A DNA stretch of 64,000 nucleotides from an uncultured bacterium. Its GTDB lineage: Bacteria; Zixibacteria; MSB-5A5; GN15; FEB-12. The notes below the pieces were generated by a model. The model had not been told where the DNA came from. It searched no databases and saw only the letters and a program-made list of their open reading frames with translations. Within the stretch, counting starts at the first letter, position 1. Each line of letters opens with the position of its first letter. This document shows positions 50,576 through 56,350 of this stretch, piece after piece. The position numbers and the translations under genes were made by a program. The DNA lies in assembly GCA_965372795.1 (NCBI GenBank), contig CBDVDR010000008.1, forward strand, positions 73,622 through 137,621, in the 5' to 3' direction.

Positions 50576-50906
50576 ACTTCCCAGAACTTTAAGCCTGAAA
50601 AGCAAGAATGAGATCAGTCAACTTTTTGACTCAGGCAATAAAATTCATGGGAGTTTGTTTACTTTGATTTGGGAAGTGAGCGATAATTTTAAGTACGGGA
50701 TATTTGTCTCGAAAAAAACCGGCAGCGCTGTTGAAAGAAATAAAATTAAGCGGTTTTTTCGGGAAGCTGTCCGGCTTAATAAAAATAAACTTGAAAAAGT
50801 TTATAAATTAGGATTTCTTCCCAGAAAAACAATGAAACCCGAGTTTGACCAGATAAATGCCGAAGTCAATCGAATATTCTCAGCGCTTAACGATGCAGGA
50901 AAGTAA
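50559..50906 (+). CDS. rnpA: Ribonuclease P protein component
   Basis: [22 protein letters not shown] motif; follows rpmH. Confidence 0.93.
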
Positions 50907-51126
50907 AACCTCCTTATTTGCTTACCCATTAATATTTATTATTTACATGTACCGATATTCTTTATCTTCAATTATCGGTAATCAATGTCGCTTTATGCCG
51001 ACTTGTTCGCATTATGCTGAGGATGCTTTAAAAAAATATGGAGCTGTAAAAGGGTCTGTTATGGCTGTTAAACGAATATTCCGATGTCACCCCTGGCATG
51101 CAGGAGGATATGATCCGGTCGAATAG
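50893..51126 (+). CDS. yidD: Membrane protein insertion efficiency factor
   Basis: CRF.PTCS.YA..A..KYG..KG...RI.RCHPW..GGYDPV. Confidence 0.95.
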   Translation: MQESKTSLFAYPLIFIIYMYRYSLSSIIGNQCRFMPTCSHYAEDALKKYGAVKGSVMAVKRIFRCHPWHAGGYDPVE

Positions 51127-51205: not shown

Positions 51206-52918
51206 TTGGATAAAAAGAACATAATATTGATCGTAGCGTTAGTTGTAGTAGCAATATTTTACTTCCAGATAATGGAATTTCTGGGTTATTACACTCCCCC
51301 AACTTCGCAACCTGTAGTTACTGATACAGTTACGGTATCACAAACGACTCCTGAAACTCAGCCGATGCCTGTTGAAATATCAGCAGAATCAATGGATGTA
51401 ACCAGACAAGTAATAGCAGCCCAACCGGTTACAGATTCGTTAGTCAGTGACACTATTATTGTTAAGACGCAAATGTATGAGATTATGTTAACTTCATTCG
51501 GAGGTGGACCGGTCTCAATCAAATTGAACAATTATGACTATCGTAATGATGTCAAAATTGAAATGTTACCTGAATCAACCTCCCCTACTCCTGAAGCGAT
51601 ATTTGCCGGCGGTACTTTTTCCACTTCTAATATTCCTTACACATCAAATCTTCAAGCAGGTACTTATGAAGTAACCTCTCAACCACTTGAAATTGTCTAC
51701 ACTTATGCTTTAAGTGTTGGTGGTGAGATTATAAAAAAATATACCTTCAATCCTGATAAATATAATTTTGATCTGGTTCTTGAAGTAAATCAGCGCGAAA
51801 GATTTGGATTTGAACGCAAATATAATATGATGTGGAACTCCCCGATTGGAGTCACCGAGCCACAGTCTGATATTGATTATCAGGCGATGGAAGCAGTCGC
51901 TATGATGATGGGTGAGCGTGAAACGCTTGATGATTATGATGACAATGATAAACTAAATCAGACTCTTGCCGGTTCAACTTCGTGGGCAGGAGTTCGTTCT
52001 AAATATTTTGCGGCTGTAATAATTCCGCGCAACAGAGTTGCCGAAGGTGCTATTGCTAAAGGTTTCAAGTCAGAGAAACTTGAACCGGATGGATCTTCAG
52101 TAGAAGCCCGTTCGATAACCGCCGGTTTAGAAATGCCATTTGCAAATGTCAGTGTTATTTCAGACAGTTTTACAGTTTTTGTTGGTCCTCTTGATTACAC
52201 AGCGATGTCCGGTTACGATGTCGGACTTGAGGATATTCTTGGAATTGGAACAACGCCATTTGTCGGATGGATAATCAAACCATTTGCAATCGGATTAATT
52301 TGGATTCTTCCCAGGATCTATGATTTTGTTCCCAACTATGGTATCGTAATTATTCTTATAGCTTTCTTAGTAAAAGTTATAACTTTGCCTTTGTCTATGA
52401 AAGCCTTCAAGTCGATGCAGGCAATGAAAGAACTTCAACCAAAAATTGATGAGCTTAAAAAGAAGCATAAGAAAAATCCTCAGTCGTTAAATAAGGAGAT
52501 GATGAAACTCTATAAGACGCATGGGGTAAGTCCGCTGTCGGGCTGTTTACCGATGCTTCCCCAGATGCCTCTTCTCTTTGCCATGTTTGCAGTTATTCGC
52601 CAGACGATTCTACTTCGTGACGCACCCTTTTTCTGGTTTATTGATGATTTGTCAAGGGGCGCATCCGGCATAATGGATCCTTATATTATTCTGGTCATCT
52701 TTATGATTGGGGCACAGTTTATCTCACAAAAATTAACGATGGCAACCAATCAACAGAATAAAGCGATGATTTATATGATGCCGTTGATGATGGGCTTTTT
52801 CTTCTATTCCTTCGCTTCCGGACTGGTTCTATACTGGGCCTGCTTCTCAATCTTCTCTTTGATAGATTATTTCTTATTCAAACGTAATAAAAAAAATGCG
52901 CATGTTAAGGTGGCATAA
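51206..52918 (+). CDS. yidC: Membrane protein insertase YidC (long periplasmic form)
   Basis: KYF, NYG..II, SM..MKELQPKI, GCLPML.QMP, F.W..DLS, SGL.LYW. Confidence 0.95.
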   Translation: MDKKNIILIVALVVVAIFYFQIMEFLGYYTPPTSQPVVTDTVTVSQTTPETQPMPVEISAESMDVTRQVIAAQPVTDSLVSDTIIVKTQMYEIMLTSFGGGPVSIKLNNYDYRNDVKIEMLPESTSPTPEAIFAGGTFSTSNIPYTSNLQAGTYEVTSQPLEIVYTYALSVGGEIIKKYTFNPDKYNFDLVLEVNQRERFGFERKYNMMWNSPIGVTEPQSDIDYQAMEAVAMMMGERETLDDYDDNDKLNQTLAGSTSWAGVRSKYFAAVIIPRNRVAEGAIAKGFKSEKLEPDGSSVEARSITAGLEMPFANVSVISDSFTVFVGPLDYTAMSGYDVGLEDILGIGTTPFVGWIIKPFAIGLIWILPRIYDFVPNYGIVIILIAFLVKVITLPLSMKAFKSMQAMKELQPKIDELKKKHKKNPQSLNKEMMKLYKTHGVSPLSGCLPMLPQMPLLFAMFAVIRQTILLRDAPFFWFIDDLSRGASGIMDPYIILVIFMIGAQFISQKLTMATNQQNKAMIYMMPLMMGFFFYSFASGLVLYWACFSIFSLIDYFLFKRNKKNAHVKVA

Positions 52919-52922
52919 AAAG

Positions 52923-54322
52923 TTGACACCTAAAAAAAAAAGTTAACTACTCTTAGCGGCAATGAAACCATTGCCGCTATCATAACTCCCCCCGGAGAAG
53001 GCGGTATTGCCGCTATCCGTCTTGCTGGCAAACAAAGTTTATCAATTTTAGAAAATCATTTTTCTTTTAATAATAAGAATGAAAAATCATTCAAGCCGTT
53101 TTTGATGAGATTCGGACTTTTTAATAATAATAATAATGAGATCATAGATGAAATTACGGCAGTCTTTATGCCGGAAGGTAAATCATACACCGGACTGGAA
53201 CAGGTTGAAATCTTTTGTCATGGCGGACAACAGGTTGTTACAAAGATTTTAAATGAATTACTTTCATCCGGAGCCAGGGCAGCCGAACCGGGAGAGTTTA
53301 CCCAACTTGCATTTCTATCCGGAAAAATTGATCTTCTGAAAGCTGAGGCTGTTGCTGAGATAATTGCCGCCAATACCGAACATTCATTTGAGACAGCCCG
53401 GGAACATCTTTTGGGAAGTTATTCAAATGAAATTGAGAAAATACGAGATTCTATCATTTCTATAATAGCAGAAGTCGAAGCCTCGATTGATTACCCTGAG
53501 GAAGAGATCGACCCATCCGACAGGCGAGGCCTGTTAGACACAATTTCGAAGTTAGTGGATGATATAGAAGCCCTTGAAGAAACATATCAGGGTGGGAAAA
53601 TTATTAATGAGGGGTATAAAATCGCCATTGCGGGACGCCCTAATGCAGGTAAGTCATCTTTGTTCAACCAGTTACTTAAAAAAGAACGGGCTTTGGTAAC
53701 TTCTACTGCCGGAACGACCAGGGATTACCTTTCGGAATGGATCGATCTCGAAGGTTTTGCAGTCAATATTATTGATACTGCCGGAATTCGTAAGGGTGGC
53801 GGTAAAATTGAAAAGGCTGGTCAAAAATCGGCTAAGAAAATAATTGATTCTTCAAATATGGTACTGTGGATTTACGATTTGTCCCGGAAAAGTTGGAAAA
53901 ATGAACTTGAAACTGACATGAAAACGATGCAACACAGTAATATAACATTTATAGGCAACAAGAATGATCTGGTCGAAGCTAATGATGTTAAAGAATATAA
54001 CAATTATGAATCAATAGCTGTCTCTTGTGTAACCGGATCCGGAATTAAAAAATTAAAAAAAGAGATTATAAAGAATATAGAGAATAAAATGCCTGATTTC
54101 ACATCCGGTTTGATTGTAACCTCTGCCAGGCATCAACAAAAATTGAAAATAGCAAACGGTTGTTTACAAAATGCAAAGGAATTGATCACAATATCAGAAT
54201 CCCCGGAGATTACAGCAGTTGAGCTACGTTCAGCAGCATCGGCGATTGATGAGATAACCGGCAAGGTATATACAGAGGAGATATTAGGTAAAATATTCTC
54301 GAAATTCTGTGTCGGCAAATAG
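52923..54322 (+). CDS. mnmE: tRNA U34 modification GTPase MnmE, with apparent -1 frameshift in A10 at 52932-52941
   Basis: ETIAAIITPPGEGGIAAIRLAG (52964 onward, in frame with the 53102 ORF), SYTG...EI.CHGG, GEFT..AFL.GK.DL, GRPNAGKSSL, GTTRD, DTAG, IFSKFCVGK. No canonical start in frame upstream of the conserved N-terminus. Confidence 0.93.
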
Positions 54323-54493: not shown

Positions 54494-56350
54494 ATGGATT
54501 ATGATGTAATTATAGTCGGTGGCGGTCATGCCGGAGTAGAGGCAGCTTATGCCGTTGCCCGTATGGGGAAAAAAGTAGCAATTGTTACTATGGATTCCTC
54601 AAAGCTGGCAATGATGTCATGTAATCCGGCAATAGGCGGTGCAGGTAAATCTCATGTCGTAAAAGAGATTGATGCTCTGGGCGGGTTAATGGGAGAAGCG
54701 ACTGACGCTACCGGAATTCAGTTCAGAAGGCTCAATTTATCACGGGGACCGGCAGTCTGGTCAACTCGAGTTCAGTCAGATAGAGTTGCGTATAATGATT
54801 ATATTGTACAATTTATTAAAGAACAGCCTAACATTGAAGTCGTACAAGCCATAGCCGGAGAAATACTTACCGAGAATAACATTGTTACCGGAATTAAAAC
54901 CGAACAAGGTGAGGTTATTAGTGCGAAGGCTGTAATTATATGCTCGGGTACATTTTTGGGGGGACTAATTCATATTGGTGAAAAACAGATTAAGGCGGGC
55001 AGACTTGGTGAAAACTCTGCTTATAAATTGTCTGAATCGATCAGAGGATTTGGCTTTGAAATAGGACGTCTTAAAACAGGGACTCCTCCCCGTCTTGACG
55101 GATCAACGATTGATTGGGAAAAGTGTGAAATACAACCCGGGGAAGAGCCGATTCCGTTTTTCTCAAACAGATCAATAAGAGCTCCTTTTGAGCAAAGCCC
55201 CTGTTATCTGACATATACCAGTGATAAAACTAAAGAAATAATATCAGCAAATTACAAATTATCAGCGATGTTTTCTGGGCAGATAAACTCAACCGGACCA
55301 AGGTATTGCCCTTCTATTGAAGACAAATATTTTAGATTTCCCGATAAAGAAAGACACCAGCTGTTTTTGGAGCCAGAAGGAAACGGTACTAACGAAATAT
55401 ATCCAAACGGGTTTTCCACATCCTTGCCGGAATCTGTTCAAATTGAGGCGATCCGAACAGTAATTGGATTAGAAGAAGTTATTATGACTAAACCCGGTTA
55501 TGCTGTGGAATATGACTATTGCCCCTCATATCAGATAAAACCTTCACTTGAAACTAAACTTGTTGGTGGGTTGTTCTTTGCCGGACAAATTAATGGAACT
55601 TCCGGTTATGAGGAAGCTGCCGGTCAGGGACTAATGGCAGGGATTAATGCGGTATTAGGGATTGAAAATGAAAAGCCGTTTATACTGGATAGATCAGAGG
55701 CTTATATTGGAGTAATGATTGATGATCTGACAACCCGTTCTACGACAGAGCCTTATCGACTATTCACTTCTCGTGCTGAATATCGGTTAACGATTCGTGA
55801 GGATAATGCGCGAGATAGGCTTATTGAATATGGAATGAAATATAATTTGATAGCCAAAGAGGAATATAATACCTTTGTACAATTAGATAAGGATACTCAA
55901 ACAGCAATTAAACGATTTAAGAAAATACGATTAAATGTCTCTGAATTAGGCGAACTGGGTTCACGATTTCAAAAGATAGAGAATATCAGCCTAGAGAATC
56001 TTCTCAAACAACCCGGACTCTCTATTAATGAGGCTCTCCCCTGGATCAGGAAATACGATCTGGAGACTAATGATTCAGAAGAAGTATTTAAACGAGCTAC
56101 AATATTTGTTAAATACAGCGGATATATTGAAAAGCAACTTAGAGAGATCGAAAAATTCAAAAAAAACGAGAAAGAAAGTATTCCTTCTGAATTCGACTAT
56201 TCAAATCTAAAAGGGCTAAAAGCCGAGGCAAAAGAGAAATTCACCCGCTATAAGCCCGGATCGTTGGGACAGGCCGGTCGGATTGAAGGAGTAACTCCGG
56301 GAGATATTGCTGTATTATCAGTTCACTTATTAAGACATAAGGCTCATTAA
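54494..56350 (+). CDS. mnmG: tRNA uridine 5-carboxymethylaminomethyl modification enzyme MnmG (GidA)
   Basis: VGGGHAG.EAA, MSCNPAIGG, RLKTGTPPRL, GPRYCPSIEDK, AGQINGTSGYEEAAGQG, SRAEYRL. Confidence 0.98.
   Translation: MDYDVIIVGGGHAGVEAAYAVARMGKKVAIVTMDSSKLAMMSCNPAIGGAGKSHVVKEIDALGGLMGEATDATGIQFRRLNLSRGPAVWSTRVQSDRVAYNDYIVQFIKEQPNIEVVQAIAGEILTENNIVTGIKTEQGEVISAKAVIICSGTFLGGLIHIGEKQIKAGRLGENSAYKLSESIRGFGFEIGRLKTGTPPRLDGSTIDWEKCEIQPGEEPIPFFSNRSIRAPFEQSPCYLTYTSDKTKEIISANYKLSAMFSGQINSTGPRYCPSIEDKYFRFPDKERHQLFLEPEGNGTNEIYPNGFSTSLPESVQIEAIRTVIGLEEVIMTKPGYAVEYDYCPSYQIKPSLETKLVGGLFFAGQINGTSGYEEAAGQGLMAGINAVLGIENEKPFILDRSEAYIGVMIDDLTTRSTTEPYRLFTSRAEYRLTIREDNARDRLIEYGMKYNLIAKEEYNTFVQLDKDTQTAIKRFKKIRLNVSELGELGSRFQKIENISLENLLKQPGLSINEALPWIRKYDLETNDSEEVFKRATIFVKYSGYIEKQLREIEKFKKNEKESIPSEFDYSNLKGLKAEAKEKFTRYKPGSLGQAGRIEGVTPGDIAVLSVHLLRHKAH

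Follow-up and report, generated by a model that had tools for sequence, protein, structure and literature searches.

Conserved recoding is rare in cellular, non-mobile genes of bacteria, the best known cases being those of dnaX, prfB and the magnesium (Mg) chelatase gene, to which a few others such as copA can be added. Nine A or T residues are enough for efficient transcriptional slippage in bacteria, and recoding of magnesium chelatase genes at the motif A_AAA_AAR has been published and is under purifying selection (PMC5009743). The subject of this study is a run of ten A residues (A10) at the beginning of mnmE, the gene of a tRNA-modification GTPase, in a stretch of 64,000 nucleotides (the window) of an uncultured bacterium of Candidatus Zixiibacteriota (GenBank assembly GCA_965372795.1, contig CBDVDR010000008.1, positions 73,622 to 137,621 of the forward strand); the coordinates below are those of the window unless another contig is named. 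The reading frame of mnmE is interrupted at this run, and the best reading of the sequence is that the break represents a real and conserved programmed recoding site, which would gate the synthesis of MnmE. No description of a conserved mnmE recoding site was found in the literature searched, which included PMC3711429, PMC4066793 and PMC5009743 without their supplements, and the terms mnmE, trmE and GTPase are absent from the main text of PMC3711429, its supplements again being outside the search.

Reading frames of mnmE and conservation of the A run

A putative Shine-Dalgarno (SD) sequence, AAGGTGG (52907-52913, + strand), lies within the final codons of the upstream gene yidC and 9 nt ahead of the codon TTG at 52923, and GGAGGT or AGGTG is present at the same yidC codons in related genomes. 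The frame opened by this TTG on the + strand (52923-52946) consists of only seven codons, TTG ACA CCT followed by three AAA and AGT, and ends with the TAA at 52944-52946; the A10 run occupies positions 52932-52941 within it. The MnmE reading frame, of 462 codons plus the stop at 54320-54322, extends on the same strand from 52934 to 54322 in the -1 frame relative to TTG 52923, so that one A added in the mRNA, or a -1 slip of the ribosome, links the start to it. Immediately 5' of the run the MnmE frame is closed by a TAA (52931-52933, + strand), which makes initiation farther upstream in this frame impossible, and its first ATG, GTG or TTG is the TTG at 53102.

When the translation from 52934 was compared with Pfam, the TrmE_N domain (PF10396) was matched over the whole profile (positions 1-117 of 117, E = 7e-33) at residues 12-131, followed in order by MnmE_helical (PF12631, E = 2e-52) and MMR_HSR1 (PF01926, E = 7e-21); the product of the shifted frame is the MnmE/TrmE tRNA-modification GTPase with full-length domain coverage. 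Since TrmE_N is complete from residue 12, a start at 53102 would lose positions 1-45 of its 117. The translation ends in ...CVGK, which we take to be the C-terminal Cys motif typical of the MnmE family. Direct reading of the sequence thus agreed at every coordinate with the original prediction as to the SD sequence, the TTG, the A10 run, both stop codons and the first canonical start. Support was likewise found for its proposals that translation starts at TTG 52923 and that MnmE is reached only after a -1 shift, to which the addition of a single A is equivalent.

In order to evaluate the conservation of this arrangement, a first set of 41 related genomes was analysed and then all 108 species genomes of the same family, 106 of which gave a match. 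Thirty-six further genomes from three sister families were added, giving a final set of 148 genomes from four families (f1 to f4) of the same order; G102 and G120 were left out because of contig ends, and G044 and G059 because they had no match. Sequences were anchored on the Thr codon of the conserved D/E-T-I-A-A motif, and a run was sought up to 90 nt upstream of the conserved N-terminus. All these genomes are metagenome-assembled species representatives related to each other, and the counts that follow are not counts of independent events.

An MnmE orthologue was found in 41/41 genomes of the first set, and 39 of these orthologues had no internal stop. Runs of nine to eleven A residues were present in 53 of the 148 genomes (A9 in 8, A10 in 43 and A11 in 2), and 50 of the 53 required one additional nucleotide to reach the MnmE frame; two (G045 and G158) were in frame, one (G179) had no canonical upstream start, and none required the removal of one nucleotide. 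The 50 frameshifted genes began with ATG (46), GTG (3) or TTG (1), located 3-18 nt ahead of the run. Runs of eight residues, seen in G009 and in the metagenome contig L172, were in frame, and out-of-frame runs shorter than nine were never seen. The frameshifted state was found in 18 of 46 genera of f1, in 3 of 7 genomes of f3, in 11 of 32 genomes of f4 and in none of the five of f2. Outside the order, the families f5, f14 and f20 were surveyed (f6-f13 and f15-f19 of the phylum being left out), and neither a run nor the frameshifted state occurred in their 20, 16 and 14 loci, respectively; these loci had in-frame starts, which were ATG except in four loci with GTG or TTG.

In all 50 frameshifted genes the MnmE frame was open from the run to the domain, only five of them having a canonical in-frame start there. 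The open reading frames (ORFs) behind the run were intact, with about 460 codons and no stops in any of the frameshifted genomes listed. In relatives that lack the run, an in-frame ATG stands at the corresponding position and begins a short peptide rich in K and R, so that shifted reading restores the usual N-terminus of the family. The peptide encoded in the unshifted frame had 5-38 residues in the 50 genomes and its stop position was not conserved; a T stood directly ahead of the run, as in the TAA of the window, in 13 of them. The comparison of mnmE 5'-ends therefore upheld one half of the expectation that relatives would share an out-of-frame A run plus a hairpin: the run was conserved out of frame in 50 of 53 cases, and the hairpin, described below, was not tied to the shift.

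Some genomes departed from these arrangements. In G179 (L222), the ATG that precedes A10 in its relative G178 is replaced by ATA, which gives an A11 run without a canonical start, still in the frame needing +1. The f4 genomes G027 (L024), G030 (L025), G189 (L205), G164 (L216) and G183 (L220) lack a run as well as a canonical in-frame start for mnmE. In at least G027, G030 and G164, ATA or ATC stands 21 nt ahead of the Thr codon of the conserved motif and 3' of a purine-rich SD-like stretch, a pattern that suggests a non-canonical AUH start. A run and a canonical in-frame start were also missing from mnmE of G053 (L093) and of the metagenome contigs L186 and L187; G053 does have an ATG whose frame would require +1, but no slippery run, and initiation at CTG or a faulty assembly could be the cause.

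The length of the run was maintained within some genera, being A10 in 5/5 genomes of genus g47 and A9 in 3/3 of genus g58, with flanks that diverge while the run remains exact. Between three species of genus g12 the run (A9, A11 and A10) and the flanks both differ in length, yet +1 is needed in all three. In the in-frame exceptions G045 and G158 the run is still A10, and the difference of 1 nt from the closest out-of-frame relative lies outside the run. Runs persisted at a local G+C content of up to 0.62, and the few Lys codons of the mnmE fragment examined there were AAG. Homopolymers of such length mutate fast; selection for the out-of-frame state is therefore the best explanation for the split of 50 genomes needing +1, two in frame and none needing -1, and we infer that this state would be selected since it sets or regulates the level of MnmE. 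On a poorly resolved MnmE tree of 130 columns, from which the short fragment of G049 was omitted, at least 26 changes of the frameshifted state were counted, a figure to be read as a rough minimum. Consequently, the state is either old, with many losses, or has been gained repeatedly.

As a genome-wide control, all runs of at least nine A residues in sense orientation (n=111) were classified in the genome of the window, in which only nine A/T runs reach ten or more. Thirty-three of the 111 were in frame within ORFs, three were leader-like, 73 had no long ORF behind them and two broke a frame. Besides mnmE, the broken frame is that of a Mg-chelatase-like gene outside the window, on contig C3 (143750-143759; positions 1351-1360 of L198), where A10 joins a part with the Pfam domains Mg_chelatase and AAA_lid_2 to a part with VWA_2. 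The ORF of the former has 397 codons and ends in ...A_AAA_AAG TAA, and that of VWA_2 continues in the -1 frame. This gene occurs in only three of the 108 genomes of the family, and in 3/3 the junction consists of A10 and then a stop.

Source of the added position

Translation would begin at TTG 52923 and the frame encoded in the DNA would stop after seven codons, full-length MnmE being expected only where the message, or the ribosome reading it, gains one position within A10. The hybrid of RNA and DNA within RNA polymerase measures 9-10 bp, which is about the length of the mnmE run. The polymerase would realign on the homopolymer and add an A, and the share of transcripts with A11 would be translated normally, yielding MnmE whose N-terminus is extended by a short Lys-rich stretch; the other transcripts would give the tiny peptide only. 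Among the properties expected for slippage by the polymerase, those found were a homopolymer of at least nine residues (A10 here and A9-A11 in relatives), a product that needs an mRNA differing in length from the DNA (+1 nt in 50 of 53 genomes), and conservation of the run while its flanks diverge. We lean towards RNA polymerase, and not the ribosome, as the source of the extra base in this gate because out-of-frame runs were never shorter than nine, though seven A residues are enough for a -1 slip of the ribosome, because no downstream structure was conserved together with the shift, and because A10 is likewise found at the junction of the Mg-chelatase-like gene in all three genomes that have it. 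In addition, the genome of the window encodes both tRNA-Lys(UUU) and a separate tRNA-Lys(CUU), as linked to slippage in dnaX of Thermus.

Several points weigh against this preference for the polymerase. The A11 transcripts are a prediction made from the DNA sequence alone. Any run of nine or more holds an in-phase A_AAA_AAA heptamer (52934-52940 in the frame of TTG 52923), on which a -1 shift of the ribosome would yield the same protein. In 40 of the 50 genes the first A of the run is also the first base of a codon in the start frame, which pure polymerase slippage does not demand, although selection for Lys codons could explain it. Frameshifted genomes of f1 had stronger mean hairpins than the others (-14.2 vs -9.7 kcal/mol), a difference that might reflect a translational stimulator within f1, and polymerase slippage alone leaves the choice of mnmE unexplained.

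The main rival is the ribosome, which might shift by a -1 tandem slip or by backward sliding of tRNA-Lys(UUU) on AAA at codons 2-7, within a feedback loop; we consider this explanation a serious one, though less likely than slippage of the polymerase. MnmE acts with MnmG to modify U34 of tRNA-Lys(UUU), which reads AAA. The level of MnmE might thus be set by its own substrate: slippage into the productive frame would be suppressed by xm5U34, and low modification would lead to more MnmE, with or without a contribution from slippage of the polymerase, a proposal that we make tentatively. The heptamer and the phasing of the runs just mentioned are in accordance with a shifting ribosome, and AAA is read only by tRNA-Lys(UUU), tRNA-Lys(CUU) being also encoded for AAG. 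The site lies in a gene whose product belongs to the few that act on that anticodon, with the other 33 in-ORF runs of the genome in frame, and the f4 layout, an ATG immediately before A10, is that of backward sliding in vitro. In a reconstituted Escherichia coli system such sliding was observed on AUG-AAA-AAA, and the native modifications of tRNA-Lys cut its rate constants up to 25-fold (PMC9207662); in E. coli cells from which mnmE was deleted, -1 frameshifting is increased at the G/T site of phage lambda, where the A-site codon is Lys (PMC3296357). The gene-specific association and these E. coli experiments make the feedback loop plausible. Besides the minimum run length of nine, the explanation has to face a downstream stimulator and a spacing that are not conserved, as well as a partner gene, mnmG, without such a site.

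Slippage of the polymerase, the reading we prefer, was also compared with explanations in which no recoding takes place. A non-canonical MnmE start 3' of the run, such as ATT 52970, would leave the short ATG...KKK ORF as a mere leader. It could draw on the five f4 genomes in which both the run and a canonical in-frame start are missing; with ATA or ATC at -21 in at least three of them, non-canonical starts may exist in the order. We regard a start of this kind in mnmE of the window as quite unlikely, as there is no SD-like sequence ahead of ATT 52970, the stop of the upstream frame varies from 5 to 38 codons, the offset between start and domain is equal in 50 of 52 genomes, which a leader peptide would not need, and the shifted product matches the in-frame relatives in length and in its K/R-rich nature. 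A model of attenuation by an upstream leader peptide was rejected because the position of the 0-frame stop is not conserved. The original prediction had regarded phase variation or a homopolymer assembly error as simpler than recoding, and neither withstood the comparison. Phase variation, in which replication slippage of the run would switch mnmE on and off as a contingency locus, is suggested by the hypermutability of A9-A11 runs and by the at least 26 changes of state on the MnmE tree. All three frames, mostly the ON one, would then be expected; what was counted was 50 (+1), 2 (in frame) and 0 (-1), independent assemblies of the same sequence had identical run lengths, and the two in-frame exceptions differ from their closest out-of-frame relatives by 1 nt outside an unchanged A10, so that this explanation seems very unlikely. 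That a sequencing or assembly error, or a decaying pseudogene, lies behind the break is extremely unlikely. Homopolymers are error-prone on some platforms, but the same offset was shared by 50 genomes and by seven metagenome contigs with A9 or A10, in records whose contig names follow several assembler styles and one of which states a coverage of 2161x. Two pairs of these contigs from different assemblies, L174/L175 and L177/L183, agreed exactly in run length (A10 or A9). The ORFs of about 460 codons free of stops speak against decay, and the 33 in-ORF runs of the same genome were intact. Random homopolymer error is improbable since only two of 111 runs broke a frame, in mnmE and in a Mg-chelatase-like gene belonging to a published recoding family.

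Hairpin, direct repeat and neighbouring genes

Downstream of the run and within the coding sequence (52954-52979, + strand), there is a perfect hairpin of 11 bp with arms at 52954-52964 and 52969-52979 and the loop AAAC, as originally described. Its 5' arm encodes the variable N-terminal extension and its 3' arm the conserved residues T-I-A-A-I. The 131 nt from 52900 to 53030 fold with -44.7 kcal/mol, compared with -28.7 +/- 3.5 kcal/mol for 200 shuffled sequences (z = -4.5), none of which was as stable. The spacer, previously given as 13 nt, measures 12 bases from the last A to the stem, and 13 only if counted from the last full AAA codon. In the sister genome G001, nine pairs are kept and there is one compensatory double change. 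Within f1, native combinations of the 5' and 3' halves had a mean of -11.3 kcal/mol, compared with -9.1 kcal/mol when the halves were swapped between genera, and 20/20 swap replicates were weaker. Among 104 sequences, 55.9% of the cells could pair compared with 51.9% after shuffling, and covariation was 0.221 compared with 0.172, a value that none of 500 shuffles reached; a register slid by +3 scored 0.218, and long stems were present in some genera only.

Long stems were found in frameshifted and normal genomes alike. The proposal that the hairpin stimulates the shift was not borne out, and it was rejected as a general stimulator: at the genus level there was no link between hairpin strength and frameshift (p = 0.15), the hairpin was weak in f3 and f4, the structures of f4 being weaker where mnmE is frameshifted, and between 0 and 26 nt separated it from the run across the 50 genomes. 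A stimulator of -1 frameshifting would be expected about 5-9 nt away and the structure here stands at 12-13 nt; no systematic search was made for an SD-like stimulator upstream. The hairpin is read as a separate, lineage-variable feature of the 5' coding region of mnmE. A search against Rfam gave four matches, all far under the gathering scores, and no terminator-like site was found in 52500-53300.

The 12-nt sequence ATTGCCGCTATC, whose first copy is at 52970-52981, has a second exact copy at 53006-53017 on the + strand; each copy encodes I-A-A-I, and this direct repeat places the motif twice in the first 30 residues of MnmE. The recurrence of the 3' arm at that place was therefore correctly noted, and the alternative pairing with the 5' arm that it was thought to allow did not appear in the minimum free energy (MFE) fold. 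In the same fold, seven pairs (G-U included) within 52922-52948 flank A10 and leave the run in a loop, probably by chance.

The genome of the window consists of 3.35 Mb in 69 contigs with 38% G+C. The order of genes on the + strand of the window is a yidD-like ORF, yidC, mnmE and the probable mnmG. The 5' neighbour of mnmE, yidC (51206-52918, + strand, 570 aa), has its stop TAA at 52916-52918, 4 nt ahead of the mnmE start, and its C-terminal sequence is conserved beside mnmE in relatives; its final codons contain an in-frame A8 run (52889-52896). Further upstream lies an ORF of 89 aa (50857-51126), presumably yidD in view of its Cys-rich C-terminal half, a resemblance noted without a search. 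Downstream, an ORF of 618 aa (54494-56350, + strand) with an ordinary ATG start and no run is taken to be mnmG (gidA) from its N-terminal FAD-binding motif, without a family search.

Comparison with known recoding systems

The mnmE site would add a universal tRNA-modification gene to the known cases, with about 50 natural site variants in three families of an uncultured phylum, and would offer recoding biology a set of naturally occurring A9-A11 runs at codons 2-7, some accompanied by hairpins and others not. For annotation it means that gene callers would truncate or pseudogenise mnmE in such genomes. As the site is built only of codons read by the substrate tRNA of MnmE, it makes testable whether cells sense and correct the state of their tRNA modification, and the feedback, if true, would constitute a homeostatic loop for tRNA modification with a logic like that of release factor 2 (RF2).

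The yeast gene ABP140/TRM140, in which the shift is +1, differs from mnmE in being eukaryotic and in its site and enzyme. What it shares with mnmE is that an enzyme of tRNA modification is made by way of a required frameshift (PMC5009743). In insect endosymbionts, frameshifts in genes with poly(A) tracts are read through by infidelity of the polymerase, with 12-50% of the transcripts corrected (PMC5009743), and in Walczuchella three genes, mnmE itself among them, contain long poly(A/T) tracts; mnmE is regarded there as a pseudogene with a possible rescue by slippage (PMC12188211). Those cases are interpreted as decay in tiny, drifting genomes, whereas the site described here occurs in environmental genomes of 1.7-5.1 Mb with its exact offset kept across genera.

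The Mg chelatase gene (Antonov et al. 2013) shares with mnmE the -1 direction and an A-rich Lys site (PMC5009743). In that gene, however, recoding joins two large domains and leads to two products, whereas in mnmE it acts as an N-terminal on/off gate. Shigella mxiE, whose extended or full-length protein needs polymerase slippage at an A/T run (PMC5009743), and Citrobacter tssM, which needs slippage for its full-length product (PMC4256274), resemble mnmE in this requirement; they are virulence-system genes of single lineages, in contrast to the universal mnmE, whose site was kept or regained across three families. If the feedback holds, mnmE would resemble prfB, the gene of RF2, whose product controls its own recoding through the decoding step that it serves (PMC5009743). 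In prfB a +1 shift takes place at a stop codon, an SD element acts as the stimulator, and the loop is proven; the shift in mnmE would be -1 on sense codons, and its loop is hypothetical.

The dnaX gene of Thermus thermophilus resembles mnmE in having a homopolymer of 9-10 residues in a housekeeping gene, where the polymerase adds A residues and the edited mRNA is translated normally, and Thermus resembles the genome of the window in its separate tRNAs for AAA and AAG (PMC5009743). In dnaX, which has a run of nine, the frame encoded in the DNA gives the long product and slippage a second, shorter one. The DNA frame of mnmE gives only a peptide of 5-38 residues, and the whole enzyme depends on a shift at codons 2-7. 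The mnmE site thus adds to programmed slippage at poly(A) runs a case whose unusual position gates a whole enzyme, in a gene whose choice invites a feedback model.

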